A DNA stretch of 64,000 bases. Source: Chthoniobacterales bacterium. Lineage in GTDB: Bacteria; Verrucomicrobiota; Verrucomicrobiia; Chthoniobacterales; DYNR01. The stretch is from contig JAOAAX010000005.1 of the NCBI GenBank assembly GCA_026418675.1, positions 13,789-77,788 on the forward strand, read 5' to 3'. The notes below the pieces were generated by a model. It made no database searches and was not told the DNA's origin. It saw nothing but the letters and a program-made list of their open reading frames with translations. Made by a program: the position numbers and the translations under genes. Positions 2,946 through 62,805 of the stretch are shown piece after piece; position 1 is the first letter of the stretch; every line of letters starts with the position of its first letter.

Positions 2946-5900
2946 ATGCAAAAAGCTTACTATCTTCAAAAATTCCGCCGGCTCCGGAATGGATTTTTTT
3001 CTTCGCACCGGCGCAGAGATCGCGGGGTTGCCCTAGTGATTACCCTCTCCCTTCTTGTTCTTGTAACCTTTGCTTCCGTAGCGTTTTTCAGCCGCGCAAC
3101 TTCGAATTACCGTGTCGAGACCACGCGCACCAATCAACAAGTTGTCTCCTCCACCATGCCTTCCGTTGAAGCTTACCTTATAAATCTTTTCCTCCAAGAA
3201 CTCATTGCCAATTCAAACCAAATCGGGAGCAACCCCATCATTTACCAACCCACTGGGGCAGCAAAAATCATCCCCGAATTCAAAGGCACTTCCGCCGTCG
3301 GCAACCCCAACTTCCCTACCCTCATCCGCCAATCCGTCCCTGGCGCCGATCTCAATGCCTCCGGACACAGCACGGAGCAGCCCTCTGCAAACGGCATCTC
3401 AATTCAACCTTCGGCTTGGAATGCGCCAATGCTCCACCTCGGTTCCGGTTTTACCTCCGGTCAGACACCCAACTGGATTTACATCCAGAAAGACAGCTCC
3501 TACTCCGCATCTCCGAATCAAAATACCGTAGGCCGTTTCGCTTACAACGTCTATGAGGTTAGCGGCCTCCTCAACGCCAATGCTGCCGGCTATCCCTCGT
3601 CCGTCTCAGACACCCGAGAATTAAAATCCTCCACTGCCGGTGCAAACCTCAATTCTCTTGGCATCTCATCTAGCGCCATCAGCAACCTTATCCAATTCCG
3701 CACCAACAACTTCAGTGGCAATTACGTAGAACTTGTTCGTTTCGCTCTCCGCTCGGGCTTCCTCTCCTCAACTGTTAGCGTTTCGGGTTCCAACCTCACC
3801 CTCAACCGTTTCACTACACGCCAGGACCTCATCCGCTACGCTACCCGAGTCAATTCAGGTCTTGCCCCAGCCCTTCCCTACTTGACCCACTTCTCTCGCC
3901 ACTCCACCTCCCCCACATGGTCACCCACTACGCCCCAGGGAAGCACCATCGACTACACAGCCTTGGCAAATACGGCTTCAGCTCCCAACCGTTTCCTCCC
4001 CAACGTCCGCGTTCAATCCAGCTTCACCCGAGCCGATGGCACATCAGCGAAAGCTGGCGAACCCCTGCTAAAAAGTCGCTTTCCCCTCTCCCGCCTGGCT
4101 GCAATTGGTCCAAATGGAGTGAATTCTTCTGCTCAAAGCCTAGTGAATGGCCAGCTTACCAACGCCACTCCTGCTACGGTCCAGCGCGATTTCGGCCTCC
4201 GCTGGCAAAATGGCCGCTGGGAATATGTTGGCTCTACAGGTTCTACAGTCCAAAATACGATCAAAACCCTTGCCGAAGTTGCCTCCGAGAACCGCGAACC
4301 GAATTTCTTCGAACTCCTCAAAGCCGGCATCCTCTCCGGTTCGATTGGACATGCTTCTGCAAGCAAGACCATCGCCGGAGCCTTTACCCGAACTCTTGAG
4401 GACGACGAAGACCTCCAGATTGCCCGCATTGCCGCTTGTGTCATAGACCAATTCGATAATGACAACTACCCCACCACGATCAATTTCGGCGGGGTCCATG
4501 TCCATGGAGTAGAGGACATCCCATATCTTTTTGGCATCCTCAATATGGAACGTTGGAGGCACGACCCGTGGGGACAATACACGAATGACAACCCACCCGG
4601 GACTACCTCTCGAAATTACACAATTAGCATGGCTATCAAATGGTCTCCCACATTTTGGAATCCCCACCGCTCCGCAATAACCCCATCCCAACAGCCAACC
4701 AGTATTCGTGCCCGAATTCTCGGAGGTCAAATCACCTCAATCGTCCATACCGGGCTTGGCGCTTCTGGAAATGTTACCGCACTAGACCAAACCATCCCCA
4801 TTCCACTCCCCACTTCCACAACGATTACTTTCTCTTCTCCCTATACCACAAATAACCACTTCCGCGATCGCAACCGCCCGGCAGATGGTAATTTTGCAAC
4901 AGGAAGTTTACCAAGTCAGTTACCCTGGTGGAATAGCAATCCAGGGACTGGTGGGGACAGCTATTGTGGTTTTCCCATCTTAACCAGGAACCAAGCTACC
5001 ATCCGGAATGTTACAACAACTACTGCACAGGGCTGGTTTGCGCGTATTGATGTCAATCAGGCCCAAATTGTCTTAGAATACTACGATGGAAGCGCTTGGA
5101 GAATTTACGATACCGTCGCTGGTTACACGAACCTTCCTATAACAGGAATTACTACAGGTGCAACAGAAAACTGGGAATATGGAACTTGTGCCTTCTGGAT
5201 CCGCTCACAAAATAATGTCGGAAATGATCCCCAATTTTCTGGTAAATGGGACCCACGAACAACCCGTTGGGCTGCCTGTCGCGGAACGAGCACCACCAGT
5301 GGTTCGCCCCCCAATAATTCCATCATCTTCACTCTCTGGAATGTCACCTCCGGCCGTGCAGATTCTTTTCGCTACAACAAACCTTTTGCTTTTCTTTCAA
5401 CCACACCCAACCCCACTTATTTCTCCCGTTGGCCAAATGGGGGGACAACTGTTCAACTGGACGTAAAATTCGCGGACCCGGATGGTGTGGTGCGCCCCAG
5501 CGATGGCTACCTTGGTCCAAACATCCTCCAAAATCCTACAAATACCTCTTTCCGGTATCCCATTCTGCAAAGAAAGTTCCTAAATGTAGCAGAGCTAGGT
5601 TATACTTTCCGGGATACCCCTTGGCAAAGCCTCAACTTTTTCCACGATCGCAGTGCAGACAGCGCTTTGCTCGATTTATTTTGTGTGGACGAAGAAGCTT
5701 ACCTCAGCAACGCTATCAGCGCAGGCAAAATAAACCCGAACACAGCTCCTCAAAAAGTCCTGGAGGCCCTTGCTGAAGGAGTTCCTCGTGACCCCGAGGG
5801 AAGCGGAGGAAATATCAATCCAACTGTAACCGCCCAGGGGTTCTTGAGCTTTAGAAGCAACACAAAACTGACGAACAAAGCCCAATTGGTAAATTTCATT

Positions 5901-6152
5901 TCATCTGGACAGAATTCCGATCCTGAAACTCTCAAATGGCGTCGCGAGGCACCTGTTCGCGCTTGGGCTGACGTCTTCGAAACCCGCAACTGGAACCTCT
6001 TTGCCGATGTAATCGTTCAAGTCGGTAGAGTGCCCCCTGGCTCCTCTGGTTTCCTTGTCGAAGGGCAACAGCGAACGTGGACCTCCGTTGCTATTGACCG
6101 TTTTACTGCCGAAATCCTCGAAAAATCCTCCGAAGTCGTCACCTCAAATTAA
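2946..6152 (+). CDS. Giant GspK/PilX-like pseudopilin (1068 aa), possible filament tip protein
   Basis: N-terminus RDRG|VALVITLSLLVLVTFASVAFF is a pilin-type helix without Glu5, as in GspK. The C-terminal region carries GKINPNTAPQKVLEALAEG (about 5720-5775), resembling the GspK/ComEA-type 'kiNiNTA' helix-hairpin-helix motif. The roughly 800 aa between are S/T/N-rich. Lies 25 nt after the previous gene. Confidence 0.6.
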   Translation: MQKAYYLQKFRRLRNGFFSSHRRRDRGVALVITLSLLVLVTFASVAFFSRATSNYRVETTRTNQQVVSSTMPSVEAYLINLFLQELIANSNQIGSNPIIYQPTGAAKIIPEFKGTSAVGNPNFPTLIRQSVPGADLNASGHSTEQPSANGISIQPSAWNAPMLHLGSGFTSGQTPNWIYIQKDSSYSASPNQNTVGRFAYNVYEVSGLLNANAAGYPSSVSDTRELKSSTAGANLNSLGISSSAISNLIQFRTNNFSGNYVELVRFALRSGFLSSTVSVSGSNLTLNRFTTRQDLIRYATRVNSGLAPALPYLTHFSRHSTSPTWSPTTPQGSTIDYTALANTASAPNRFLPNVRVQSSFTRADGTSAKAGEPLLKSRFPLSRLAAIGPNGVNSSAQSLVNGQLTNATPATVQRDFGLRWQNGRWEYVGSTGSTVQNTIKTLAEVASENREPNFFELLKAGILSGSIGHASASKTIAGAFTRTLEDDEDLQIARIAACVIDQFDNDNYPTTINFGGVHVHGVEDIPYLFGILNMERWRHDPWGQYTNDNPPGTTSRNYTISMAIKWSPTFWNPHRSAITPSQQPTSIRARILGGQITSIVHTGLGASGNVTALDQTIPIPLPTSTTITFSSPYTTNNHFRDRNRPADGNFATGSLPSQLPWWNSNPGTGGDSYCGFPILTRNQATIRNVTTTTAQGWFARIDVNQAQIVLEYYDGSAWRIYDTVAGYTNLPITGITTGATENWEYGTCAFWIRSQNNVGNDPQFSGKWDPRTTRWAACRGTSTTSGSPPNNSIIFTLWNVTSGRADSFRYNKPFAFLSTTPNPTYFSRWPNGGTTVQLDVKFADPDGVVRPSDGYLGPNILQNPTNTSFRYPILQRKFLNVAELGYTFRDTPWQSLNFFHDRSADSALLDLFCVDEEAYLSNAISAGKINPNTAPQKVLEALAEGVPRDPEGSGGNINPTVTAQGFLSFRSNTKLTNKAQLVNFISSGQNSDPETLKWRREAPVRAWADVFETRNWNLFADVIVQVGRVPPGSSGFLVEGQQRTWTSVAIDRFTAEILEKSSEVVTSN

Positions 6153-9243: not shown

Positions 9244-9615
9244 TCAGGTGGGGAGATAACCGTTCATTTCTCTGAGGATTTCAGGATTGAGCAATTCCAT
9301 GGTTTCATCAGCTAGACCCAAGGTAAGCACTTTCTGTTTTGACATAAAAGTGACCACGCGGTCGTCAAACGTTATGCTTGCCCTCATCGGGAAAACAAGA
9401 TGTTGCTGGAATTCGTGAAAAAATTGGGAAATCATTTTTGTCCTTTCCAGCAATTTTTTGACTTCGGTGGCTGTGACTCGCGTTTTTGCTTCTCCAAAGA
9501 TTAAATTGTTTTCACACCACGCCAGGGAATCTACTTCTGTGTTGAAACTAGGTATATTTTGTAACTTCCTCGATGGTGGTTTCTCCGTCGTATATGTTGC
9601 GGAGACCGTCTTCAC
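9244..9615 (-). CDS. Small hypothetical protein with PD-(D/E)XK-like motif
   Basis: TEVD-SLAWCENNLIFG-EAK gives a D...ExK spacing typical of restriction-endonuclease-fold proteins. The 5' end overlaps the stop of the upstream ATPase gene by 68 nt. Weak call. Confidence 0.3.
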   Translation of the reverse strand: MKTVSATYTTEKPPSRKLQNIPSFNTEVDSLAWCENNLIFGEAKTRVTATEVKKLLERTKMISQFFHEFQQHLVFPMRASITFDDRVVTFMSKQKVLTLGLADETMELLNPEILREMNGYLPT

Positions 9616-11245
9616 GGAGTGTTACCATTCCTTGCTCGATAGCCTTTTGTCGAAGGACAATACCAGGTGCGCGTTCGTTGACGAGTTCGCGGATGGCATC
9701 GGTCATTTTGAGGAGTTCGAAAAGACCTTTTCTGCCTTTGTAACCGGTTTGGTTGCAGACTTCACATCCTTTGCCGAAGAAGAAGTTTTTGTCGCCAATA
9801 TCATAGATGGTAAGGCCAAGAGCATTGAGAGCGGCTTCTGTTGGTTCGTAAGCGGTGCGGCAGGCGCGACAAATTCTGCGGATGAGGCGTTGGGCGAGGA
9901 CTGCTTCGAGAGCTGCGGAAATGAGGAAGGGCTCGACGCCCATATCCACGAGCCGGGTGACTGCCCCTGTTGAGTCGTTGGTGTGGAGAGTAGTAAAGAC
10001 GAGGTGGCCGGTCAGGGAAGCTTGGATGGCAATTTGAGCGGTTTCGATGTCGCGGGTTTCCCCAACCATGATTCGGTCAGGGTCCTGGCGGAGGAATGCG
10101 CGCAATAAACGGGCAAAGGTTAACCCGATAGCCTCGTTGACTTGGCATTGGACAATTCCGTCCACTTCATACTCGACAGGGTCTTCGGCCGTAAGGAGTT
10201 TTGAGTCGAGGGTATTGATTCGGCGTAGACAGGCGTAAAGGGTGGTCGTTTTGCCACTTCCAGTTGGGCCCGTGACGATGAATATTCCATTGGGTCGTTC
10301 GATCAGCTCGCAGATGTAATCATAAATGGGTTTTGGCATACCCAAATTTTCGAGATCGAGATTAACGGAGGAACGATCGAGGACACGAAGGACTACACTT
10401 TCGCCAAACTGAGTTGGAAGTGTGGATACACGGAGGTCAATTGGATTGCCAGCAATGTTTTTTTGAATACGTCCATCTTGCGGAAGGCGGCGTTCGGCAA
10501 TGTTCAGATTGGCCATAACTTTGACGCGGGAGATGATGGGAAGTGCAAGATGTTTGGGAGGGGGGTCCATTTCGTAAAGTGAACCATCCACCCGGTAGCG
10601 AATTTTGAACTCGTTCTCAAATGGCTCGAAGTGAATATCACTGGCTTTGGCTTGGATGGCTTTATCGAGGATAAGATCAACGAAACGGACGATTGGGGCG
10701 GAATTAGCTTGGTTGGCAGCCTCCTGGGCGTTGAAGTTATCGGAGGAGTCGTCTTTTCCGAATTCGATACCTGCGCCTTCTGCGATTTGGGCGAGGATTT
10801 CTTCCATGCTGGCTTCACCGGAGCCGTAATATTTGTCAATCAGTTGTGAGACGCGGGCACGTGGACAAACAGCAAGTTGGATTTCGCGATTGAGAGCGAA
10901 GCGGAGGTCTTCTGCTGTTTGGATATTGAGAGGATCTTCGAGAGCAACGTAGAGGGTGTTTTCGTTTGCTCCAATGGGTAAGGCGCGGTGGAGACGGGCA
11001 AGACCAGCGGGAATTAGGCGGAGAATGGCTTCGTCGGGAGTGAAGTCTTCGAGGGTATAGAATTCGAGCCCCAAACTGTCGGCAATGGACTTGAAAAAAG
11101 TGTTTTCGTCCATGATTCCATGATCAACGAAAACACGGTCAATCGGTTTGCCCGTTGATAGGGACTCTTGGACTAAGGACTGAGCCAGATCGGGGCTGAG
11201 GAAACCGAATTCGACGAAGATGTCAGCTGTATGTTGAGGGTCCAT
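9548..11245 (-). CDS. gspE: GspE/PilB-family type II secretion / type IV pilus assembly ATPase (copy 2)
   Basis: Walker A GPTGSGKTTT, Asp box LTAEDPVEY, Walker B IMVGETRD, His box LTGHLVFTTLHTND. Tetracysteine CRAC...CEVC. N-terminal GSPII_E_N-like domain present. Confidence 0.93.
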   Translation of the reverse strand: MDPQHTADIFVEFGFLSPDLAQSLVQESLSTGKPIDRVFVDHGIMDENTFFKSIADSLGLEFYTLEDFTPDEAILRLIPAGLARLHRALPIGANENTLYVALEDPLNIQTAEDLRFALNREIQLAVCPRARVSQLIDKYYGSGEASMEEILAQIAEGAGIEFGKDDSSDNFNAQEAANQANSAPIVRFVDLILDKAIQAKASDIHFEPFENEFKIRYRVDGSLYEMDPPPKHLALPIISRVKVMANLNIAERRLPQDGRIQKNIAGNPIDLRVSTLPTQFGESVVLRVLDRSSVNLDLENLGMPKPIYDYICELIERPNGIFIVTGPTGSGKTTTLYACLRRINTLDSKLLTAEDPVEYEVDGIVQCQVNEAIGLTFARLLRAFLRQDPDRIMVGETRDIETAQIAIQASLTGHLVFTTLHTNDSTGAVTRLVDMGVEPFLISAALEAVLAQRLIRRICRACRTAYEPTEAALNALGLTIYDIGDKNFFFGKGCEVCNQTGYKGRKGLFELLKMTDAIRELVNERAPGIVLRQKAIEQGMVTLREDGLRNIYDGETTIEEVTKYT

Positions 11246-11266: not shown

Positions 11267-12958
11267 CTAGCTGGAATCGGCCATCGTTATGGCAATGACT
11301 TCTTCGGCTGTAGTCAAACCGGCGAGGACCTTGCGAACTCCATCTTCGCGGAGGGTGCGCATTCCCATTTCGCGGGCACGATTGCGGAGTTGGAGGCTGG
11401 TTGCATTGGAAACGATTAGGTTGCGGATTTCGTCGTCAACAACAAAAATTTCAAAAATCCCCATACGGCCACGGTAGCCTTTGTAACGACATTGTTCGCA
11501 GCCAGTGGGACGCATGGTATTGGCGTTTGCCAACATCGCAGCGTCAATCCGAAGAGTGCGCATTTCATATTCCGTAGGAGTGCAAGGCTTTTTGCAATGA
11601 GGACAAAGACGTCGGACCAGGCGTTGGGCCATGGCGGCGCGCAGCGCACTTGCAACAAGAAATGGTTTTATTCCAATGTCCACGAGACGGGCGACGGAGC
11701 TGGTTGCGTCGTTGGTGTGGAGGGTGGAAAGGACGAGGTGACCAGTGAGCGAAGCATTGATGGCTATTTGTGCTGTTTCAGCATCGCGGATTTCTCCGAT
11801 CATAATAATATTGGGAGCTTGCCGGAGGATAGAGCGGAGAGCAGCAGGGAAGGTCATTCCGATTTCTGCTTTTACTTGCACTTGGTTAATTCCGCTCATT
11901 TGATATTCGACGGGGTCCTCAACTGTGATGATTTTGCGATCAGGTTTGTTGAGAACATTCAGGACAGCATAGAGGGTGGTGGTTTTGCCACTTCCTGTCG
12001 GACCGGTTACAAGCAGGATCCCATCTGGCAAAGAAATGAGACTTTCAAATTTTGATTGATCGTCGCTAAAGAAACCAAGCTCTGGAAGCCCTAAAACGAG
12101 GGAGGATTTATCAAGAATACGCATGACGATGCTCTCGCCGTGCACAGTTGGGATGGAGGAGACGCGTAAGTCTATGGATTTTTGTCCGAGGCGGACTTGA
12201 ATGCGGCCGTCTTGAGGTAAGCGTTTTTCTGCGATACTCATGGTGCCGGTCATGATCTTGAGCCGGCTAATGATAGCGGCGTGGAGTTTTTTAGGTGGAC
12301 TGGGCATTTCTTGCAGAACGCCATCAATACGGAAACGGACACGAAATTTTTTCTCCATCGGTTCGAGATGGATGTCGCTGGCACGAGCTTTGTAAGCATC
12401 GAGCAAGAGCATAGTGACCATTTTGATAACAGGCGCTTCGTCCACGTCTTCCTGGCCTGCGCCTGCGTCTCCTTCGCCAGAGATTTCGATGCCTTCGGCA
12501 ATTTGTTTAATCAACTTTTCCTTTTGTTCCTGCTCGGCCGAGTAATATTTGTTTAGGGCGAGATCAATCTGCTCTGGGACAGCGCAAACGAATTCAAGGT
12601 TACGTTGGAGGAGGTGATTTAGTGCGTCAAAAGAGTCAATGTCCATAGGGTCAGCAACGGCAATGACAAGAGCATCATCGCGTTGCTGGATGGGGATAGC
12701 TCTATAGCGGCGGGCAGTTTCGGCACTGAGCAAGGAAATAACTTCGTCGGGGATGGATAAATTGGAGAGATCGACAAAGTCGAGCCCGCATTGAGCAGCG
12801 AGTGTTTTTGCTACGTCTTCGCGGGTGAGGATACCAGCTTCAACAAGACCTTCGATAACTTTGCCTGGATGGGTTTGCCTCGCAGCTTGAATTTGGCTGC
12901 GGGTGACCATGCCGGAGTCCTGGAGGACTTCCAAGACGTATTCTTCGCTAATCGTCAC
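11267..12958 (-). CDS. gspE: GspE/PilB-family type II secretion / type IV pilus assembly ATPase (copy 1)
   Basis: GPTGSGKTTT, ITVEDPVEY, IMIGEIRD, LTGHLVLSTLHTND, CPHC...CEQC. Same full-length architecture as the gene 21 nt downstream. Confidence 0.93.
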   Translation of the reverse strand: MTISEEYVLEVLQDSGMVTRSQIQAARQTHPGKVIEGLVEAGILTREDVAKTLAAQCGLDFVDLSNLSIPDEVISLLSAETARRYRAIPIQQRDDALVIAVADPMDIDSFDALNHLLQRNLEFVCAVPEQIDLALNKYYSAEQEQKEKLIKQIAEGIEISGEGDAGAGQEDVDEAPVIKMVTMLLLDAYKARASDIHLEPMEKKFRVRFRIDGVLQEMPSPPKKLHAAIISRLKIMTGTMSIAEKRLPQDGRIQVRLGQKSIDLRVSSIPTVHGESIVMRILDKSSLVLGLPELGFFSDDQSKFESLISLPDGILLVTGPTGSGKTTTLYAVLNVLNKPDRKIITVEDPVEYQMSGINQVQVKAEIGMTFPAALRSILRQAPNIIMIGEIRDAETAQIAINASLTGHLVLSTLHTNDATSSVARLVDIGIKPFLVASALRAAMAQRLVRRLCPHCKKPCTPTEYEMRTLRIDAAMLANANTMRPTGCEQCRYKGYRGRMGIFEIFVVDDEIRNLIVSNATSLQLRNRAREMGMRTLREDGVRKVLAGLTTAEEVIAITMADSS

Positions 12959-16809: not shown

Positions 16810-16909
16810 TGGGCTTTGAAGTTGTTGTTACTGCAAAAGATAAACTTATCTTTTATTGTTTTGGGAGAGTTTAGAAGTATAGAGTTTTGTGCTTGTGCCC
16901 TTAAAGGAG

Positions 16910-16978: not shown

Positions 16979-18061
<1,083 letters not shown>

Positions 18062-18179: not shown

Positions 18180-20384
18180 TTATTGTTTAGAGGATTTTCT
18201 GCTGGAGGGACGAGATGAGCCTGAACGTGAAGAGAGAGATTTTTTGCGGGGTGGGGAGGTTGGAGTGAAAAGGATAGGGCCTGCGTCGGTGGTGATTTGT
18301 TTGGGTTGAGAGGATAGCTGTGAGGAATAAGCGGGGCGTATTTCGACCAGAGAGAAGGAATCTTCGATGCGAATTTCGCCGATAGCTGAATGGGGAAGGT
18401 CGCAGACGACTTCTACAAGGGCTTGGAGGTCGTGTTCGCGTATGCCGTGTTCGCGTCCAACTGAAATGCGGAGCCAGCGGGCATGATCAATTGCGGCCTG
18501 CGATTTTGAGCGGGACAGTTTTTGTGGGAATGGGACGTTTTCTTCTCGAAGGACTTCTGCTACGCGGTCTTCGTTGGAGGGAGGTTCGAAAGATTCTTCA
18601 GGTTTGGGTTGGGGAGGAAAGGATGGTTCGGTAGAAGATTTTTCGGTGTGGGATAGGATTTGTGAATCGGCGAAGGGGGCTTCGGTGGAAGAAATGGGGG
18701 CAGGATTCTCGTGGGATTGAAGTGATGAGGTTGGGGGGGGCTCGTCCTGGTGGCTATTGCTGAGGGAGGAGTCGTAGGATGTAGTTTCACTGGATTGACT
18801 TGGAGGTGATGGGGTATCGGGGGCGGTTCGTTGTGACGGGCTTTCGTCTTGCTCTAAGGGGAGGGCTGGCTGCTGTTGAGGGGGGATTCTCTGTCTTGAT
18901 GCTCGGGTGGCTCTTTTTTCGGTCAGGCGTTCGCGCCAAGGTTTGCGGGTATTGGATTTGCGGAGCGGTGTTGTTTTTTGGACAGATTGATCGTGATTTG
19001 AGGGCTGTGAACGTTGAGTCTCTGATGGAGGAGGTGTTTCTTCCGACGGAGGAGTGGAGGGAGAAGATTGTTTTTCGATGTGAAGTGCGAGTAAAGCAGC
19101 GGCGAGTTCAGTAGGTGGGATTCCGTTTAAGGTGATGCTCTGAATTGCGTCGAGACAAAGGCTAATTTTACCAGAGCGGAGACGGCTAAGGGCAGCATCA
19201 AGGGTTGTAGAGAGAGAGGTTGTAGAAATGGATGCAATTGTCGGAATTCTACGCCATTGGAAACGGCGGGAGAGTTTTTTCTCGAGGAGGCGGATATTTT
19301 CAATCTCGGATGGAGTTGTTAGGAAAGAGGATGCTGTGAATTGGTTGGGTGGCGCTTGGGCAAGGAAAGTGAGGCGATGGAAGTAGGAGGTTATGTCGAA
19401 AGGTGGTTCATAGTGGATAATGAAGTTTGAATTTAAATTTGTGAGGAGTAAGGAGGCGGCTTCGGTGAGGATGAGGCAACGTATGGACTGCCGGAGAAAA
19501 GCACGATGAGCGGAAGTGATTTCTTCTGGAGAGGAGGCACTGTGGAGTAGGGAGCAGGGAATGTTGCGCGACGTGAGGAAATTTGCGGCTTTTTTTGCGG
19601 AATTGCGGTTTGTGCAGAATGCAATAGCTTGAGGGGAACCGTGGCTGAGAAGTGCCCAGAGGAGGGCTTGTGGTTTGTTTTGCGGCAGTGTTTCCCAAGA
19701 GGTTTCTAAGTTGGGAGGAGGGGTAGGTTTGCTTTCTGGTGATGGGATTTCGAGTGTGACAAATGAAGGGAAATGTAAGGGACTGGACACGAGAGAATCT
19801 TCGTCCGAGCTGAGGATCAGGAATTGGTTAGATTTGATTGAGTGGATAAGGGAGGGGAGATGAGGTTTGCTGTGTTGGAATTTTTCGGGGTTAACAACGA
19901 CGGTGAGCTGGAAGGAGTGGCGAATGGGATTGTGGAAGTAGTTTTCGTGCAAAAAAAGGATATTGCTATCTTTTAATACGGAAGGGGAATTGTCTGGATT
20001 GTAAAAAGAGAGGGAGAGTCCATGGTGGTGAGGGGCAAGCTCGAGGAGACGTTCAGCCAGGGCTGAGGAAAATTCTGGCTCAGAAGAGAGGATAAGGATT
20101 TGGGGATTGGGGAAATTACGATTAAGTAGCTCGAGGCAAGCGATGGAGATAGCAGTAGAGAGGCCAAAGTTGCGTTGGTAGGGGATGAAGAGTGATTTGG
20201 ATGAGAGAAGATGAGAGAGAAGAGTGAATTGGAAAGGGGAAGGGATTTCGATTCCTTCGTTGCGCAGAGCTTGAAGGGTTTCAAGTTGTATTCCCAGTTC
20301 CTCGAATGAAGCGGTGAACATTCTGGGAAAGGGTGTAGTTTTATTTTGCAGGTTTGCGCAAGCGAAAGCCGACTGGGGTGACAA
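18180..20384 (-). CDS. Degenerate DEAD-box helicase-like protein with DbpA-type RNA-binding C-terminus
   Basis: The helicase scaffold aligns, but motif I is YQRNFGLST, motif II VVNPEKF, motif III SSD and motif VI HRLTFLAQ. The C-terminus RISVGREHGIREHDLQALVEVVCDLPHSAIGEIRIEDSFSLVEI resembles the DbpA RBD. The linker is long and P/S-rich. An alternative start MFTASFEELGI lies at 20321. Confidence 0.6.
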   Translation of the reverse strand: MSPQSAFACANLQNKTTPFPRMFTASFEELGIQLETLQALRNEGIEIPSPFQFTLLSHLLSSKSLFIPYQRNFGLSTAISIACLELLNRNFPNPQILILSSEPEFSSALAERLLELAPHHHGLSLSFYNPDNSPSVLKDSNILFLHENYFHNPIRHSFQLTVVVNPEKFQHSKPHLPSLIHSIKSNQFLILSSDEDSLVSSPLHFPSFVTLEIPSPESKPTPPPNLETSWETLPQNKPQALLWALLSHGSPQAIAFCTNRNSAKKAANFLTSRNIPCSLLHSASSPEEITSAHRAFLRQSIRCLILTEAASLLLTNLNSNFIIHYEPPFDITSYFHRLTFLAQAPPNQFTASSFLTTPSEIENIRLLEKKLSRRFQWRRIPTIASISTTSLSTTLDAALSRLRSGKISLCLDAIQSITLNGIPPTELAAALLALHIEKQSSPSTPPSEETPPPSETQRSQPSNHDQSVQKTTPLRKSNTRKPWRERLTEKRATRASRQRIPPQQQPALPLEQDESPSQRTAPDTPSPPSQSSETTSYDSSLSNSHQDEPPPTSSLQSHENPAPISSTEAPFADSQILSHTEKSSTEPSFPPQPKPEESFEPPSNEDRVAEVLREENVPFPQKLSRSKSQAAIDHARWLRISVGREHGIREHDLQALVEVVCDLPHSAIGEIRIEDSFSLVEIRPAYSSQLSSQPKQITTDAGPILFTPTSPPRKKSLSSRSGSSRPSSRKSSKQ

Positions 20385-23009: not shown

Positions 23010-23702
23010 TTAGTGGGGGCTGGAGGGAGTTGTTAATGTTTTTGGGGAATTTTCAGAAGCGGGTTGGGGTTGTGGCGAATTTCTATATTGACGATATTGA
23101 TTGATTAATTTTTCGATAAGCTCTTCCTCTTTTTTTTGGCGTTCTTCATGATACCTTTTGCGGAGTTCGCGTTCGATGGTGGCACGTTCCTCCCAAAATT
23201 GTTCGAAAAGAGCTTGGCGTTCGGAAGGAGAAGGAGACAAACCTGAGTTTTCGATTGCCTGTTGGAGACGCTGTTGGGTTTGCTGGCGTAGCTGATGTGC
23301 TTTTTTTCTCATCCAGTATCGTTCGGAAGGTTCCAGTTGCTCCCATTGACGGCGGTTAGCTTTGTGAAATTGTTGGTATTGTTGAGTTGGAGGGGGTAGA
23401 ATGGGAAACGGAGGTGGATTAGGATGGGGAGGAGGGGAAGGGTTTTGATGAAATTGGATTTGGTTGGATGGAAAAGGTGGAGGAAAGGGAGGAAGCGGTT
23501 GGAGCAAATGTAGGTTATGAAAGTGAGGAGGGTTTGCTTGTGAAGAAGAAAAATGTTGAAGTTGTGTTTGAGGCAAGGGGGATGATATTGGTGAGGGGGC
23601 TGGTTGAGCAAAGAGTTGAGAGGCCTGAGATAGTGCTAAGAGGCAGATAAGGAGGAACTTGGATCGAGCTGAAGAAACAAGAGGGGAAGGGAGGGTGTTC
23701 AT
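23010..23702 (-). CDS. Secreted Pro/Gln-rich hypothetical protein
   Basis: From the ATG at 23702 the signal peptide reads MNTLPSPLVSSARSKFLLICLLALSQASQLFAQ. A P-rich middle is followed by a charged helical C-terminus (RQWEQLEPSERYWMRKK...). The start overlaps the upstream stop as ATGA. The ORF track start is 23723. Confidence 0.55.
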   Translation of the reverse strand: MNTLPSPLVSSARSKFLLICLLALSQASQLFAQPAPSPISSPLPQTQLQHFSSSQANPPHFHNLHLLQPLPPFPPPFPSNQIQFHQNPSPPPHPNPPPFPILPPPTQQYQQFHKANRRQWEQLEPSERYWMRKKAHQLRQQTQQRLQQAIENSGLSPSPSERQALFEQFWEERATIERELRKRYHEERQKKEEELIEKLINQYRQYRNSPQPQPASENSPKTLTTPSSPH

Positions 23703-24097
23703 TTTGTGGATGCAAACATCCATATTTCTTGCTCAAAATGGTCAAGATAAATATCGAGGTTAGAGATAATTTCTTCGTCTAAGAAGGGAGAGGGTGCATT
23801 GAGGGAAGTATTAGGAGATGTAGTGTTGGATGGGGTAGGGAGCTGGGTGATAGCTAGAATTATGGCAAGCAGAGTGCAAATACTAAGAGCAATTGGGGTT
23901 AGCTTTCTAATAAATTCAAAAGTAATTGGTGAAGGAAGTGTTAGCGGTTTTTGGCATGAATCATTTACGTAGTTAAGGGTTTTTGATACAAACCAAGGAT
24001 TTGTAGGGGGTTTTGGAACTAAATCGAGGAGGAGTTCAATTTTGTCTGGAGTTTTAGTTGGAGTTTGAGATGAGGGGGTTTGTTGTTTTTTTTGCAT
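23699..24097 (-). CDS. Single-pass membrane hypothetical protein
   Basis: One TM helix, TPIALSICTLLAIILAITQL. Translationally coupled (ATGA) to the downstream P-rich gene. Confidence 0.45.
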   Translation of the reverse strand: MQKKQQTPSSQTPTKTPDKIELLLDLVPKPPTNPWFVSKTLNYVNDSCQKPLTLPSPITFEFIRKLTPIALSICTLLAIILAITQLPTPSNTTSPNTSLNAPSPFLDEEIISNLDIYLDHFEQEIWMFASTK

Positions 24098-57326: not shown

Positions 57327-58094
57327 ATGCGGGAATTGCTGAGAAAATTAATATTTTATTTTGCAAATAAATGTGGTTTAATTGTTAAGCGTAAGAGTCC
57401 TTATAAATATCAAGAGCAAAAGAGTTTCTCTTCAATTATTCCGAGTTGGAATGACTTAATGTTTTCAATTCATGGTAAAAATATTTATGAAGGTTTTCTA
57501 TTTAAGGATTATTTTCCAGATATTGAAGGTTGGTTTTCAACTTCACCTGCATTTGAATACCTATTAAGTTTAGTAAAGCCCAAATTTGTGATTGAAGTAG
57601 GCACATGGAAAGGGGCATCGGCGATTCACATGGCCAGAATTTTACAAAACTGGCACCACGATTTTAGAATTTTATGTATTGATACATGGCTTGGGTCTTT
57701 GGAATTTTGGGAAGATCACTCAGACCCCAAACGCTTTCTCTCTCTTGAATGCAAGCACGGCTATCCTCAAGTCTATTATCGGTTCCTTGCTAATGTTTGC
57801 TATGAGGGGCTTCAAAACCACATCATTCCTTTTCCTTTGCACTCTTCGTCCGCAGCAATTTGGCTGATGCGTAAGGGGGTTGTAGCCGATGCAATTTATA
57901 TAGACGGGAGCCATGAAGAGGAAGATGTTTTTCAGGATATTTTTAATTTTTATCAAGTGACGAAAAAAGGGGGGATTATTTTCGGAGATGACGTTGAGCT
58001 AGCCGGAGTCCGAAATGCTTTAGTAAATTTCTGTAAAATTAAACACATTAATTGGAAACGAAATGAAAATAAGTGGTATTTGACAGTTTCCTAA
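57327..58094 (+). CDS. Class I SAM-dependent methyltransferase (sugar O-methyltransferase-like)
   Basis: VIEVGTWKGASAIHMA (motif I) and AIYIDGSHEEEDVFQD. Confidence 0.72.
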   Translation: MRELLRKLIFYFANKCGLIVKRKSPYKYQEQKSFSSIIPSWNDLMFSIHGKNIYEGFLFKDYFPDIEGWFSTSPAFEYLLSLVKPKFVIEVGTWKGASAIHMARILQNWHHDFRILCIDTWLGSLEFWEDHSDPKRFLSLECKHGYPQVYYRFLANVCYEGLQNHIIPFPLHSSSAAIWLMRKGVVADAIYIDGSHEEEDVFQDIFNFYQVTKKGGIIFGDDVELAGVRNALVNFCKIKHINWKRNENKWYLTVS

Positions 58095-58096
58095 AG

Positions 58097-58945
58097 ATGC
58101 CGAAACTTTTTGTAACAGGGGGGACAGGGTTCCTAGGGGGTTACTTTATAAAGCAGGCATTGAAAGAGGGTTTTATAGTTCGAGCAATTACGAGAAAGTC
58201 ACCGCCGTTTGAGTTGGATCATTTGGAATGGATTTTAGGTGGGCTAGGTGAATATAAGACGGAATGGATGGATGGAATTGATGCAATCGTGCATATAGCT
58301 TCGGCAGGAGTTTCTCCAAAACCAATTAGTTGGCAAGAAGCTCTTCAAATCAACTTGTGTGAAAGTCTTGGCCTTTTTCAATTTGCTAATGAATTAGGCG
58401 TTAACAAATGGGTAGTAATTGGCAGTTGTATGGAATATGGCCTTAGCGGAAACAATTATGAATTTATCCCTGTAGATGCCGAACTCATTCCAGTGGGGCC
58501 TTACGCAACATCTAAAGCTGCTTTTTATCTAACAATTTCAGCATTTTGTCGTGAAAAGCGGGCTTATTTAAGCTATCTGCGTCCTTTTCACTTTTTCGGT
58601 GATGGCCAATACGAGAAAAACTTTTGGCCAAGCTTGAAAGCAGCAGCAATTGCTGGACTTGACTTTCCAATGACTAAGGGTGAGCAAATCCGGGATTTTA
58701 TTTCCGTTCAAGCTGTTGTAGAGGAAGTTCTTCAGCACACCTGCGAATTACTTGAGCTAAAGAAACCGCAAATAAAGATTAAAAATATTGGTTCTGGAGT
58801 TCCGCGAACCTTGCGATCTTTTGCTGAGGAGTGGTGGCATTTCTGGAAGGCTAAAGGTCAATTGCTTGTTGGAGCTATGCCCTATAGAGAAAATGAAATC
58901 TTTCGATTGGTGCCGAATTTAACTCCCAAAGTCATTTTTTTATGA
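58097..58945 (+). CDS. NAD-dependent epimerase/dehydratase family SDR
   Basis: LFVTGGTGFLGGYF Rossmann motif and the YATSK catalytic motif. ATG at 58097, directly after the upstream stop; the ORF track start is 58073. Confidence 0.82.
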   Translation: MPKLFVTGGTGFLGGYFIKQALKEGFIVRAITRKSPPFELDHLEWILGGLGEYKTEWMDGIDAIVHIASAGVSPKPISWQEALQINLCESLGLFQFANELGVNKWVVIGSCMEYGLSGNNYEFIPVDAELIPVGPYATSKAAFYLTISAFCREKRAYLSYLRPFHFFGDGQYEKNFWPSLKAAAIAGLDFPMTKGEQIRDFISVQAVVEEVLQHTCELLELKKPQIKIKNIGSGVPRTLRSFAEEWWHFWKAKGQLLVGAMPYRENEIFRLVPNLTPKVIFL

Positions 58946-59994
58946 AAATTCTTATTACAGGAGGATGTGGATTTTTAGGGTCAAATCTAGCTTTTGAGTT
59001 TCTGAAAAATCAAGAGGAAGTTGTAATTGTTGATTCGCTTTACCGAGTTGGAGGAAAACAAAATCTTGAATGGTTAAAAGCAAATTCCAAGGAAAAGCAA
59101 TTTCATTTCTATCAAGTAGATATTGCTTGCGATAAAGAACTTGAAATGATATTTCAAAGGCATGCCCCTTTCGATTATATCTGTCATTTTGCTGGACAGG
59201 TTGCGATGACCACCTCATTAAAGGATCCTAAAAGAGATTTTCTCACTAATGTTGTTGGAACCTTTAATTTGCTTGAATTTGCTAGAATATATTCTCCGGA
59301 AACTTTTCTTGCTTACAGTTCAACAAATAAGGTTTATGGAGACTTAAATTTCGTAAGATTGCGTGAAACTCCTACTCGTTATGAAGCTGTTGATTTTCCG
59401 AATGGTTTCGATGAGACACTTCCCTTAGATTTTGCTTCGCCGTATGGATGCTCAAAGGGAGCTGCAGATCAATATGTTCGAGATTGGTATCGAAACTTCG
59501 GCATTAAAACGGTGGTTTTTCGACATTCCTCAATATATGGTGGCAGACAATTTTCTACTTATGATCAAGGATGGGTGGGCTGGTTTTGTAAAAAGGCTAT
59601 AGAGCAAAAGAACGCATGGCTAAAAGGTGAAATTCCTGAACCATTCACAATTTCAGGAAGTGGTAAACAGGTCCGAGATGTCCTTCATGCTGAAGATTTA
59701 ATAAACTTATATTTGATGGCATTTGAAAAAAAGGAACAAATTGCTGGCGAGGTTTTTAATATCGGTGGAGGCATAGATAATAGTCTCAGTCTTCTTGAAT
59801 TATTTTCTTTCTTGGAAAATTTATTAGAAATGCCGAAAAAATTAATTTTTAATAGAACAGAAAGACGTAAATCCGATCAGGATTTTTTTGTTTCAAGCAA
59901 TAAAAAAGCAAAGGAAAAGTTAAATTGGGAACCCAAAATTAGGTATATTTGTGGAATTCAAAATGTATTAAATTGGATTAATAATCAAAATTAA
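58942..59994 (+). CDS. CDP-paratose 2-epimerase (tyvelose epimerase)-like SDR
   Basis: ILITGGCGFLGSNLA, AGQVAMTTS, SSTNKVYGD, SPYGCSKGAADQY, VVFRHSSIYGGRQFSTYDQGWVGWFC, ISGSGKQVRDVLHAED. These blocks closely match what I recall of Salmonella RfbE. Confidence 0.8.
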   Translation: MKILITGGCGFLGSNLAFEFLKNQEEVVIVDSLYRVGGKQNLEWLKANSKEKQFHFYQVDIACDKELEMIFQRHAPFDYICHFAGQVAMTTSLKDPKRDFLTNVVGTFNLLEFARIYSPETFLAYSSTNKVYGDLNFVRLRETPTRYEAVDFPNGFDETLPLDFASPYGCSKGAADQYVRDWYRNFGIKTVVFRHSSIYGGRQFSTYDQGWVGWFCKKAIEQKNAWLKGEIPEPFTISGSGKQVRDVLHAEDLINLYLMAFEKKEQIAGEVFNIGGGIDNSLSLLELFSFLENLLEMPKKLIFNRTERRKSDQDFFVSSNKKAKEKLNWEPKIRYICGIQNVLNWINNQN

Positions 59995-59995
59995 A

Positions 59996-61036
59996 ATGCA
60001 TTATATAAATGATATAAAAGAAAAAAAATTTCTTTCCATAGCTATTCCTACTTATAACCGTGTGAATCATGTAAAACAAAGAATTGAGGAATTGTTGCCA
60101 CAATTAAATGATGAAACCCAAATTATTATTTATGACAATGGGAGCGATGAAATAAATGATTTGCTAAAATATATTGATAACAAAAGAGTTTTTTACAAGA
60201 GATCAATATCAAACTTAGGTATGACAGGTAATTTTTTACGTTGCATGACACAGACACTATCTGAATGGATTTGGGTTTTAGGCGATGATGATCCTGTAAA
60301 AGATAATTGTTTAAAAACAATTCTTGGAGTTTTAAAAAAAACAGAAGCTTCAATTGTAAACTTTACAACTGATGCATGCTTTAATAATTCTAATAAATTA
60401 ATATTAAATTTGAGTGAGCTTTTAATGATAAAAGACGTTAGTTCACTGCTGCATTTTTCATCTAATGTTTATAAATTAGAAACTGTAAAAAAAACATTTC
60501 ATGTTCTGGCAACATCATGTTTTACTTATGCTATGCATGTAGTTATAATTACAAAAGCCTTAGAGAATATTCCCGACTGTAAAATGGAATTAAGAGTTGA
60601 AGAAATATTGAAAAAAAACAATTTAAACCCGCGAAGGTGGTCAACGCTTGAAGTTGCCATGGGTTTAAGTGTTTACCCTTGTTTTGTAAACCAAATAGAT
60701 TTAAAAAAAATATGTTCAAATCAACTGAGAGCATCGACGAGATGGATGCTTTTATGGGCGCTTGGGGATATAAAAAATATAAATGAGATAGGCATGTGGA
60801 AATTAGCTGTAAAATTTACAAATAACAATCTTAAAGTATTTGGTTCATCGCTTCTCAATCATTTCTATTATTTTATATCCAAAAATAAAAATTTTAAAGA
60901 TTTTTATAGAGACTTTTTTTTATCAATACTTTTGCTTTTACCAAAAAATTTAATTTACTATATAGCAAAGTATATGAGATCTAGGTTTTTAAAAACAAAC
61001 CAACGAGAATATACTGTTTTAAGTGAATTCAAATAA
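59996..61036 (+). CDS. Glycosyltransferase family 2 (paralog a)
   Basis: LSIAIPTYNR, IIIYDNGSDE, WIWVLGDDDP (DxD motif). Long C-terminal extension ending in VLSEFK. Confidence 0.8.
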   Translation: MHYINDIKEKKFLSIAIPTYNRVNHVKQRIEELLPQLNDETQIIIYDNGSDEINDLLKYIDNKRVFYKRSISNLGMTGNFLRCMTQTLSEWIWVLGDDDPVKDNCLKTILGVLKKTEASIVNFTTDACFNNSNKLILNLSELLMIKDVSSLLHFSSNVYKLETVKKTFHVLATSCFTYAMHVVIITKALENIPDCKMELRVEEILKKNNLNPRRWSTLEVAMGLSVYPCFVNQIDLKKICSNQLRASTRWMLLWALGDIKNINEIGMWKLAVKFTNNNLKVFGSSLLNHFYYFISKNKNFKDFYRDFFLSILLLLPKNLIYYIAKYMRSRFLKTNQREYTVLSEFK

Positions 61037-61037
61037 A

Positions 61038-61793
61038 ATGAATTTAGGTCGTTTCATTTATTTTTCATCTGAATTAATAAATGATTTTCTATTTAGAAGA
61101 AAATTTTTGAAAAATTATTTAAAAAGTTACTTTTATGAAAAATCATTCTCATATCCATGTATAAATTTAGAAACCAAGACAATCGTTGATATTATACCTA
61201 ATGCAGAGGAAGAGTGTGTTAAGCTTTCAGGAATATTTGAAATTCCTAAGTTTCCTTTAGGTATTAAATCCGAGAGATTTTTTACAGCATCAACGAATTT
61301 AGTAGATTCTTTTTGTTTAGCTTTATTTGCTAAAAAATTTGCAAAAGAAAAGATACTAGAAATTGGAACATCTTTTGGAGAAACAGCGTTAACGTTTGCA
61401 TTAAACTCTCCCGAAAATTGTGTCGTTTATACAATAGATATTCAAAATACTTTGAGTAATCCGACGATTGGACGGAAATTTCGTAATAAAAATATTGAAA
61501 AAAAGATTAAATTTTACTCAATGGATATTGAAAGAGTTTTTTCCATTTTACCGCCAAAGTCTGTTGATATAATATTTATAGATGGGGATCATAGTTATGA
61601 AGGTGTTAAGAAAGACACTGAATACTCTTTAAGTTTGATTAAAGATAATGGTATCATAATATGGCATGATTGTTGTGTAATGTTTTTAGATGGCGTTGTT
61701 AAATATTTAGATGAATTGAAAAAAAATAAAAATTTAAAAATTATAAAAATAGCACACACAAATTTAACATTAGGTTACAAAATTGAGATATAA
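61038..61793 (+). CDS. Class I SAM-dependent methyltransferase (second copy)
   Basis: ILEIGTSFGETALTFA and IIFIDGDHSYEGVKKD. ATG at 61038, one nt after the upstream stop; the ORF track uses GTG at 61023. Confidence 0.72.
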   Translation: MNLGRFIYFSSELINDFLFRRKFLKNYLKSYFYEKSFSYPCINLETKTIVDIIPNAEEECVKLSGIFEIPKFPLGIKSERFFTASTNLVDSFCLALFAKKFAKEKILEIGTSFGETALTFALNSPENCVVYTIDIQNTLSNPTIGRKFRNKNIEKKIKFYSMDIERVFSILPPKSVDIIFIDGDHSYEGVKKDTEYSLSLIKDNGIIIWHDCCVMFLDGVVKYLDELKKNKNLKIIKIAHTNLTLGYKIEI

Positions 61794-62787
61794 GTTCAAA
61801 TATTCTGTAGCAATACCAACATATAATCGAAAGAAGGAATTACATCAAACATTAACAATTTTAAATGAACAGTTAGATAAGAATATCAGTATATGGATAT
61901 TCGATAATGGTAGTAATGATGGAACATGTGAATTAGTAAAATCTTTGATCACCACTTTTGATAACAATGTTATTTTAAAGCGTTCACTCCATAATATTGG
62001 CATGCCTGCAAATATTGCAAGATCACTATTAAATACAGACGCCGAATGGATATGGTTGCTGGGAGATGATGATATACCTTTGGAAAATTCAATTCAAAAT
62101 TTTATAAAATTGACTGAAAAGTATAAAAATGGAATAATTGAGTTCAATTCAAGTGGGGGGGCTATTGAAACAGATATTATCATTCAAAACTATGATGATT
62201 TTTACAAATATCATGATTTAGTTAAGACAGTTTTTATATCATCACATATATTTCACAAACCTTCAATAGAAAAATTTTTGGGGATTCTATATTTCGCTTC
62301 CTTTACATTTGCTCCCCACTCTGTTCTTGTTTTAAGGTTATTGGAACATGGTTATGGGAATTTATATTTGGATACTTGCTCATTATTAAAAAGTTTCTAT
62401 CATGCAAAGCGATGGTCAACCTTAGAAGCTGGATTTGGAATAAGTTTACTTCCTGAATTTATATCCAACAAAAAATTTAAAAAGCTTTTTTCACAAAGGC
62501 TTCTTTTAGATTTATGTTGGCAATTAAGCTTTGGGTTAACTGAAATATACGATCAAAAAACGGCTGAGCGTTGGAAAGATACAGTGAAACATGTTTTTGC
62601 AAATCTGAAGAATTATGGTGCAAAAATATTTCCAATAGGAGATAAGTATAGAAAACCAAAAAAAGTTGAAATAAAAGATTTTTTTATTATTGCAATTGCC
62701 CTTGTTTTACCAAAAAAAATATTGTTAAATATAGCTCAAAAATTTAGAGCTAAACATAAAAGAGAGATAGTTTTAAGTGAAAAATAA
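61783..62787 (+). CDS. Glycosyltransferase family 2 (paralog b)
   Basis: YSVAIPTYNR, IWIFDNGSNDGT, WIWLLGDDD, KRWSTLEAGFGISLLPEF, tail VLSEK. Collinear with the gene at 59996. TTG start overlapping the MT stop. Confidence 0.8.
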   Translation: MRYKFKYSVAIPTYNRKKELHQTLTILNEQLDKNISIWIFDNGSNDGTCELVKSLITTFDNNVILKRSLHNIGMPANIARSLLNTDAEWIWLLGDDDIPLENSIQNFIKLTEKYKNGIIEFNSSGGAIETDIIIQNYDDFYKYHDLVKTVFISSHIFHKPSIEKFLGILYFASFTFAPHSVLVLRLLEHGYGNLYLDTCSLLKSFYHAKRWSTLEAGFGISLLPEFISNKKFKKLFSQRLLLDLCWQLSFGLTEIYDQKTAERWKDTVKHVFANLKNYGAKIFPIGDKYRKPKKVEIKDFFIIAIALVLPKKILLNIAQKFRAKHKREIVLSEK

Positions 62788-62805
62788 TTAAATAGTAAGT
62801 AAAAA

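Follow-up and report, generated by a model that had tools for sequence, protein, structure and literature searches.

A DeaD-derived protein from a Chthoniobacterales bacterium with an eroded helicase core and a retained RNA-binding domain, probably an ATP-independent pseudohelicase

The protein described here is encoded on the minus strand of a 64,000-nucleotide stretch of DNA (the window) from a Chthoniobacterales bacterium (assembly GCA_026418675.1, contig JAOAAX010000005.1, positions 13,789 to 77,788). What defines a DEAD-box protein is the clamping and unwinding of RNA with the use of ATP; this 713 aa protein probably does neither. It is considered to be a pseudohelicase whose ancestor was a DEAD-box helicase of the DeaD/CsdA type, and it would serve as an ATP-independent and probably dimeric RNA binder or scaffold. 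Erosion of the protein is domain-specific: both RecA-like domains, RecA1 and RecA2, are eroded, and the dimerization domain and the RNA-binding domain (RBD) lie inside the range of canonical DeaD proteins. If the assignment is true, the protein is a natural separation-of-function variant of DeaD, revealing what the accessory domains do alone.

The coding sequence and its domains are given below by their window coordinates. Residue numbers of the domains and of the AlphaFold2 model follow the 713 aa product, and those marked ORF refer to the 734 aa open reading frame; confidence in the AlphaFold2 (AF2) model is given as predicted local distance difference test scores (pLDDT), and RRM stands for RNA recognition motif.

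18180..20321, minus strand: coding sequence of the putative pseudohelicase, 713 aa from the ATG at 20321, with the stop codon at 18180-18182
19737..20321, minus strand: degenerate RecA1-like (DEAD) domain, residues 1-195, from the phmmer match to 5gju and AF2 block-mean pLDDT of 60-95
19251..19724, minus strand: degenerate RecA2-like (Helicase_C) domain, residues 200-357, with AF2 block means mostly 86-97
19062..19244, minus strand: predicted DeaD-type dimerization domain of three helices, residues 360-420, from DeaD_dimer and AF2
18489..19061, minus strand: disordered Ser/Pro/Thr/Gln/Glu-rich linker, residues 421-611, from AF2 pLDDT below 50 over residues 422-611 and from composition
18252..18488, minus strand: DbpA-family (DeaD-type) RRM-like RBD, residues 612-690, from Pfam DbpA and AF2 block means of 79-97
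18183..18251, minus strand: basic Ser/Arg/Lys C-terminal tail PRKKSLSSRSGSSRPSSRKSSKQ, from the sequence, disordered in AF2

Motifs of the helicase core were compared through HMMER alignments, a 61-sequence MAFFT alignment that includes the query, and a check of the translation. A first-pass annotation, made from the sequence alone, had described substitutions in every catalytic motif; those of motifs I, Ia, III, V and VI are reproduced by these comparisons. The motif remnants are the following.

20229..20306, minus strand: Q-motif region FEELGI...GIEIPSPFQ, retained, with F6, G23, P29 and Q31 kept
20154..20180, minus strand: motif I (Walker A) remnant YQRNFGLST in place of AQTGSGKT, from HMMER alignment to 1hv8 and 5gju
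20067..20084, minus strand: motif Ia remnant SEPEFS in place of PTRELA, from HMMER and MAFFT alignments
19878..19898, minus strand: motif II (Walker B, DEAD) remnant VVNPEKF, from alignment and from the AF2 strand that ends at residue 143
19803..19811, minus strand: motif III remnant SSD in place of SAT, from the MAFFT alignment
19440..19475, minus strand: motif V remnant LILTEAASLLLT in place of LVATDVAARGLD, from HMMER and MAFFT alignments
19350..19379, minus strand: motif VI remnant HRLTFLAQAP in place of HRIGRTGRAG, from HMMER and MAFFT alignments

All 61 aligned sequences, query included, share the Q-motif residues F6 and Q31. Motif I carries the column changes T50R, G51N, T52F and K54L, the P-loop Lys having become Leu. 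The loss of motif II holds, but its earlier reading as VVNPEK is ambiguous by one residue, as either VVNPEK or VNPEKF may be set against VLDEAD; the D-E pair is absent in either register (columns L144N, D145P, E146E, A147K and D148F), and the Walker A and B motifs are thus not intact on realignment. Motif V has changed from TDxxARG to TEAASLL, and in motif VI the arginines of GRTGR are replaced (R319F, R322Q) with only the H-R pair kept. Further RNA-binding motifs of the core are also lost: GG has become NP, TPGR (Ib) has become HENY, and QxxR (IVa) has become PxxI. Canonical DeaD proteins have 113 columns with conservation of 80% or more; the query keeps 34 of these, including 4 of 19 Gly, 1 of 9 Arg and none of 7 Asp. 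From these losses the protein is predicted to be incapable of binding or hydrolyzing ATP, and of clamping RNA, as canonical DEAD-box proteins do, and by the defining motifs of the active DEAD-box family it falls outside that family; the earlier claim of descent from a DEAD-box protein in which canonical ATP hydrolysis is impossible, judging from sequence, is upheld.

It is conceivable, though very improbable, that the protein is still an active NTPase or helicase which works through non-canonical residues relocated in the fold. The Q-motif F, G, P and Q, which serve adenine recognition, are kept, as are, in motif VI, the H-R pair and, close to motif II, a Glu; pseudoenzyme reviews describe catalytic residues that have in some cases migrated (PMC10211241). 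Such an activity would however have to survive changes in four motifs at once, with the Lys and Gly of the P-loop, the Asp of Walker B and the conserved arginines of motif VI gone along with motif III, and a P-loop filled by the bulky residues R, N, F and L.

The DEAD-box homology of the N-terminal region, also proposed by the first-pass annotation, is borne out by Pfam, by phmmer against the Protein Data Bank (PDB) and by tblastn. Three Pfam families had been named for this check, two of which match: Helicase_C (PF00271) at residues 237-338 (E=2.5e-9; 37.8 bits, above the gathering cut-off of 23.5) and DbpA (PF03880) at residues 637-689 (E=7.5e-9; 36 bits, above the cut-off of 25.6), the latter agreeing with the claim that a DbpA-family RBD is retained. 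The third, DEAD (PF00270), has no match in the protein even at E<=10; with Pfam DEAD silent, the homology of RecA1 is drawn from the phmmer alignment of residues 26-125 with the N-terminal domain of E. coli DeaD (5gju, E=2e-9) and from tblastn, which gives single collinear alignments across the core with no frame change. Residues 214-401 align by phmmer with CshA and with the DEAD protein of M. jannaschii. The Pfam family DeaD_dimer (PF25399) matches ORF residues 381-439 with E=6.5e-4 and 20.1 bits, under its cut-off of 23. At the level of NCBIfam equivalogs the protein scores 45.9 bits for DeaD (PRK11634, cut-off 989) and 57 bits for DbpA (PRK11776, cut-off 524), and it matches the CshA equivalog far under the cut-off, over a span that includes the dimerization domain.

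The AF2 model has a mean pLDDT of 74. Most 10-residue blocks of the core have means of at least 74 and many reach at least 90, the lowest values being 60-67 at residues 181-200; RecA1 is weakest over residues 111-200, with block means of 60-90, and RecA2 spans about residues 205-357 with a single block of 77 around motif VI. The dimerization domain is modeled at residues 362-419 as helices 362-383, 387-398 and 403-419 with block means of 90-95. Foldseek with this model returned CshA, DbpA and Hera as top matches, with E down to 1e-25. The low-complexity Pro/Ser/Thr-rich linker described earlier is present; its length is however about 190 aa and not 230, because a predicted DeaD-type dimerization domain, unnoticed before, occupies ORF residues 381-439. 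The linker holds a basic patch, KTTPLRKSNTRKPWRERLTEKRATRASRQR, and a repeat scan found no tandem repeats in it.

The extent of erosion was compared, domain by domain, as identity to the family consensus, with 57 canonical DeaD sequences for comparison. RecA1 shows 22% identity against a canonical mean of 61% (z=-9.5) and RecA2 25% against 57% (z=-6.1), and for neither domain does any of the 57 canonical sequences lie at or under the query; the dimerization domain shows 29% against 36% (z=-0.7, with 15 of the 57 at or under the query) and the RBD 29% against 41% (z=-1.1, with 8 of the 57). Pfam scores show the same pattern when the canonical DeaD protein P0009 is compared with the query: from 173 bits to no match for DEAD, from 115 to 38 for Helicase_C, from 46.7 to 36 for DbpA, and from 26.3 to 20.1 for DeaD_dimer. 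What the eroded core does retain is its hydrophobic pattern; strongly hydrophobic columns are still hydrophobic at 45 of 54 sites in RecA1 (background 37%, p=5e-12) and at 26 of 38 in RecA2 (background 31%, p=3e-6).

Neutral drift was simulated by letting a back-translated canonical DeaD evolve under the observed mutational bias in 200 replicates of a model that includes no indels. Drift to 36-44% residual identity introduced a mean of about 12 stops in 623 codons and left 0 of 200 replicates stop-free; for the 375-codon core alone the mean was 7.5 stops, again with 0 of 200 stop-free. An open frame by chance was rejected on these figures, and the reading frame is therefore considered to be under selection. 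Hydrophobic sites are kept at 77% pooled, against 62% ± 4% under simulated drift, and conserved Gly, Arg and Asp sites at 14%, against 38%. Within the core the frequency of G is 0.18 at codon position 1 (0.29-0.41 in neighboring genes) and 0.10 at position 2 (about 0.17-0.22 in neighbors); this G-poor, C-rich drift implies that constraint on the amino acids of the core is relaxed. The losses of Gly, Arg, Asp and Val and the gains of Ser, Pro and Leu arise because codon positions 1 and 2 have drifted with the strand bias, and the locus thereby exemplifies how strand-specific mutational bias reshapes a weakly constrained protein. The earlier description of the gene as maintained and not decaying thus stands for the frame, the hydrophobic skeleton, the dimerization domain and the RBD, and fails for the surface of the core. 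Selection, as modeled, appears to keep the frame, the buried skeleton, the dimerization domain and the RBD, but neither the catalytic nor the RNA-binding surface of the core.

Two other explanations of this pattern were weighed. According to one, only the C-terminal module (the RBD with its basic tail, perhaps along with the dimerization domain) is functional, and the first 350-400 residues have no structural role but are translated as a leader that drifts; its frame would be kept open solely by the need to reach the C-terminus, which any stop or frameshift upstream would abolish. This is unlikely. In its favor, compositional drift is massive at the first two codon positions of the core, the conserved polar and Gly residues are nearly all gone and Pfam DEAD does not match, AF2 confidence is reduced in the second half of RecA1 (60-90 over residues 111-200), and selection on the downstream domain alone would explain the stop-free frame. 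A dispensable leader would however be expected to shorten through deletions, while the tblastn alignments of the core are single and collinear with no change of frame, and the hydrophobic pattern is kept far over both background and the expectation of neutral drift. According to the other, less probable still, the gene is a non-functional relic, a pseudogene that has so far escaped stops and frameshifts by luck; its status as an orphan at >50% identity among 1.84 billion representative proteins, its composition molded by mutational bias and the loss of all catalytic motifs are in keeping with this. A relic is hard to reconcile with neutral simulations that, at the observed divergence, gave 9-12 stops in 623 codons and no stop-free replicate in 200 even with indels left out of the model, with conservation of the dimerization domain and RBD inside the canonical range, and with a 5' leader like those of neighboring expressed genes.

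The predicted domain order of the pseudohelicase, RecA1-RecA2-dimerization-linker-RBD-basic tail, is the same as that of E. coli DeaD/CsdA (5gju for RecA1, 5b88 for the RBD) and of verrucomicrobial DeaD homologs such as P0002, P0009 and P0019, which lead the non-self matches of the exhaustive search; it differs from DeaD/CsdA in that its ATPase and core RNA-binding motifs are replaced and in the consensus identity of the core, 22-25% against 57-61%. A DbpA/YxiN-type RBD with hairpin 92 of 23S rRNA as its ligand had been suggested; the predicted dimerization domain, the DeaD-type nearest relatives and the preference of the RBD profile for DeaD speak against this. The RBD shares Pfam family PF03880 with DbpA and YxiN and aligns to the RBDs of DeaD proteins with no gap within the domain. 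By phmmer against the PDB the RBD alone has no match, a family profile being required; one built from the aligned RBD family, query included, finds the RBD of E. coli DeaD best (5b88, E=3e-21), with weaker matches to YxiN (2.7e-15) and DbpA (1e-14). DbpA and YxiN, unlike the pseudohelicase, lack a dimerization domain and a long linker; with both a predicted dimerization domain and the linker of about 190 aa between core and RBD, and with PRK11776 far under its cut-off, a DbpA/YxiN-type assignment was rejected. The architecture, as predicted by these matches, is of the DeaD/CsdA/Hera type and not of the DbpA type, and hairpin-92 specificity cannot be assumed for its putative RBD.

Hera of T. 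thermophilus resembles the predicted architecture of the pseudohelicase: an RRM-like RBD comes after the dimerization domain, and a basic C-terminal tail, disordered, comes after the RBD; chains of the Hera core and dimerization domain were matched by sequence, and the core also by fold through Foldseek. In Hera the RBD (helix α-1 and strand β-2) and the Arg-rich C-terminal tail dominate RNA affinity, the tail being required for high affinity (PMC3695512); the basic tail of the pseudohelicase is analogous to it in position and charge. Unlike the pseudohelicase, Hera has ATPase and helicase activity, a Hera-specific N-terminal guanine-binding addendum is part of its RBD, and its linker is short where that of the pseudohelicase is disordered over about 190 aa. 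The RBD of Hera has no match to the RBD family profile at E<=1.

By sequence, the RecA-like domains have lost the residues for ATP binding and hydrolysis (motifs I, II and VI), the coupling of hydrolysis to unwinding (III) and the canonical grip on RNA (Ia, GG, Ib, IVa and V) and have kept the buried hydrophobic skeleton; the dimerization domain, the RBD and the basic tail match active DeaD proteins in their degree of conservation, approximately. It is hypothesized that the pseudohelicase is produced and folds with its RecA-like domains as a mainly structural body, whose surface would have drifted under a strand bias that depletes G and enriches C. A dimer would form through the dimerization domain, and its two RBDs and basic tails would bind RNA, likeliest rRNA or another structured RNA, without ATP turnover; the basic patch in the linker may add to this binding. 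The role of the protein could then be that of a tether, chaperone or scaffold for RNA, or it could partner or compete with an active DeaD paralog.

Several observations weigh against the pseudohelicase assignment. No ortholog was found in GTDB species genomes or among the 1.84 billion representative proteins, and the G content at positions 1 and 2 of the core has shifted about 63% toward the third-position level, with most core residues seemingly near-free to vary. The DeaD_dimer score remains under the Pfam cut-off. The alignment given to AF2 consists of canonical helicases, from which the confidence of the model is largely borrowed; because of this the model supports the domain boundaries but is weak evidence for folding of the core; the retained hydrophobic pattern supports the two RecA-like domains independently. 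In the RBD, helix α-1 reads QALVEVVC against a strongly conserved GAIANEA; this helix carries key RNA-binding arginines in Hera (PMC3695512), and the specificity of the RBD may differ because of its departure from the conserved sequence. The case for the pseudohelicase is clean and internally consistent; its scope is a single orphan protein from uncultured metagenome-assembled genomes (MAGs).

In an exhaustive phmmer search of the 1.84 billion representative proteins the only match stronger than E=1e-30 was an identical fragment, and the next-best relatives are canonical DeaD proteins with intact motifs, dimerization domain and RBD, at about 25% identity and no more than 91 bits. JGI metagenome contigs yielded no ortholog with either the full protein or the RBD alone as query, and an exact-protein look-up of the 713 aa product, of P0171 and of the GAPDH encoded in the window found no further contigs. 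A word-indexed homolog search gave no match with the full protein, low-complexity words having swamped the candidates, and with the core alone returned only 13 weak canonical helicases. Among 80 loci of gap homologs with 10-kb flanks there was no DeaD-like gene beside gap, and gap-pgk was the only conserved linkage. A role in a defense system was rejected: in PADLOC the protein shows only a weak, generic resemblance of the Helicase_C type to DpdF and PsyrT.

A bacterial DEAD-box pseudohelicase was not found in the literature searched, which describes as pseudohelicases the eukaryotic Utp25p and PriA, a bacterial DNA helicase. Yeast Utp25p is a DEAD-box-like pseudohelicase of the SSU processome in which helicase motifs are degenerate or dispensable (PMC9539457). 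It is like the present protein in its DEAD-box-like two-RecA fold with degenerate motifs, and its context is RNA and the ribosome; it is unlike it in being eukaryotic, essential and conserved across species, with accessory sequence at the N-terminus and neither a DbpA-type RBD nor a dimerization domain, and it is not a close homolog. PriA of D. radiodurans is a superfamily 2 (SF2) helicase that has lost ATP hydrolysis and unwinding and kept nucleic-acid binding and partner interaction (PMC4504706). The same evolutionary logic applies, but PriA is a DNA replication-restart helicase and no DEAD-box RNA helicase, and its loss is common to a phylum and shown biochemically.

Other DeaD-derived proteins with eroded cores are encoded outside the window. 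P0136 and P0172-P0176 (524-589 aa) form a DeaD-derived family of about 50% mutual identity, and P0077 (549 aa) shows the same pattern of an eroded core and a retained RBD. These proteins are like the pseudohelicase in this respect, and unlike it they still have GxGKT in Walker A and, in motif II, a DExD-like sequence (DEVD or DELD; DDAD in P0077); PTRELA (Ia), SAT (III), the Arg-Gly of motif V and a canonical motif VI (here HRLxHLxEGG) are absent. Their Pfam DEAD scores are 85-92 bits and their DbpA-type RBDs are very strongly conserved at 74-90 bits; DeaD_dimer does not match P0136 or P0172-P0176 and gives 38 bits in P0077. Where a source annotation exists, it is 'ATP-dependent RNA helicase DeaD'. 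P0077 and P0136 score 52-58 bits against the pseudohelicase and canonical DeaD proteins up to 91; because they are no closer to it than canonical DeaD proteins, its degeneration is considered independent of theirs.

A DeaD core that decays beside an RBD that is kept thus seems to be a recurrent pattern. On a wider and decidedly more tentative view, somewhat less likely than not, the protein would be a natural bacterial DEAD-box pseudohelicase, a descendant of DeaD with no ATP-driven unwinding left. It would work as a dimer that tethers or chaperones RNA without ATP, or would regulate active DeaD by heterodimerizing with it, and would be one instance of this recurrent decay. If the trend is true, the C-terminal modules of DeaD hold a helicase-independent function, and the trend, so far undescribed in bacteria, is followed by P0136/P0172-P0176, P0077 and P0182; the multi-member P0136 family may be better suited to experiments than the orphan. 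P0182 (460 aa, outside the window) begins with a degenerate RecA2-like region, after which come three DbpA-type RBDs in tandem. Two further proteins from outside the window were noted. P0037 (1675 aa) consists of about six tandem units like DEAD domain 1 with no Helicase_C, GKT being kept in most units and motif II being degenerate (LDDA). In P0140, a DeaD homolog, Trp stands where Gly is conserved (WWQPY, VVWTPGR, HRIWRTWRAW); the protein looks like the product of an organism that reads TGA as Gly (code 25), translated with a code reading TGA as Trp.

The stop-free ORF comprises 734 codons from a TTG at 20384 (window 18180..20384, minus strand), and this in-frame TTG would lengthen the product by 21 aa. 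The start is likely to be the ATG at 20321, since the N-terminus of the resulting product resembles canonical DeaD (MFTASFEELGI, compared with MQKPSFAELGL in P0009) and matches the NCBI gene model; the 713 aa product is identical to MCX7712641.1, "helicase-related protein [Chthoniobacterales bacterium]", on a 123-kb contig. On the same strand the gene is preceded by rmlD, rmlA and rmlC and followed by gap and pgk. The position directly downstream of rfbC noted earlier is correct, but the gap of 20 nt given for it becomes 83 nt once the start is set at the ATG; neither this adjacency nor any link to other neighbors has an apparent functional meaning. The 5' leader is A/C-rich without a Shine-Dalgarno sequence and resembles the leaders of gap, pgk and the rfb genes. 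A scan for promoters and terminators found no sigma-70-like promoter or terminator-like site on the strand of the gene in the flanking intergenic regions, no Rfam elements were found near it, and there is no second DEAD-box gene within the 64-kb window.

A second MAG (GCA_025055915.1, contig JANWWE010000442) contains the last 871 nt of the gene and the start of gap, with 100% nucleotide identity to the window over 1380 nt and no polymorphism. An assembly artifact was rejected because this identical stretch occurs in the second MAG; the third-position composition is also like that of neighboring housekeeping genes. At third codon positions the pseudohelicase gene has C at 0.43 and G at 0.06, as do gap, pgk and the rfb genes, and it is therefore thought to have resided for long under the same extreme strand bias rather than to have been imported recently.

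A recognizable Shine-Dalgarno sequence is present in 0 of 15 start-site contexts from 14 genes (for example 18026-18055, 16810-16839 and 20322-20351), and the leaders of the genes examined across the window are mostly A/C-rich and G-poor. Minus-strand genes at about 11-23 kb have third-position C of 0.38-0.50 and G of 0.07-0.13, an extreme strand bias; plus-strand genes at 47-55 kb have third-position G of 0.30-0.46 and C of 0.07-0.11, and the plus-strand gene at 2946..6152 has third-position C of 0.41. The cumulative GC skew reaches its lowest value about 8 kb into the window, where genes converge; possible causes are an origin-like switch with head-on genes, an inversion and a mis-join. Two overlapping Pro/Gln/Ser-rich ORFs at 23010-23723 and 23699-24097 (both minus strand) have no Pfam match and G of 0.14-0.15 at codon position 1; they are probably weakly constrained, bias-shaped proteins like the pseudohelicase, because G is depleted at codon positions 1 and 2 as it is there. 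From 58000 to 64000 the G+C content drops from about 50% to 27-37%, and this region may be a horizontally acquired island, for example of glycan genes. Tandem paralogous secretion ATPases with T2SSE/MshEN domains are encoded at 9548-11245 and 11267-12958, both on the minus strand.

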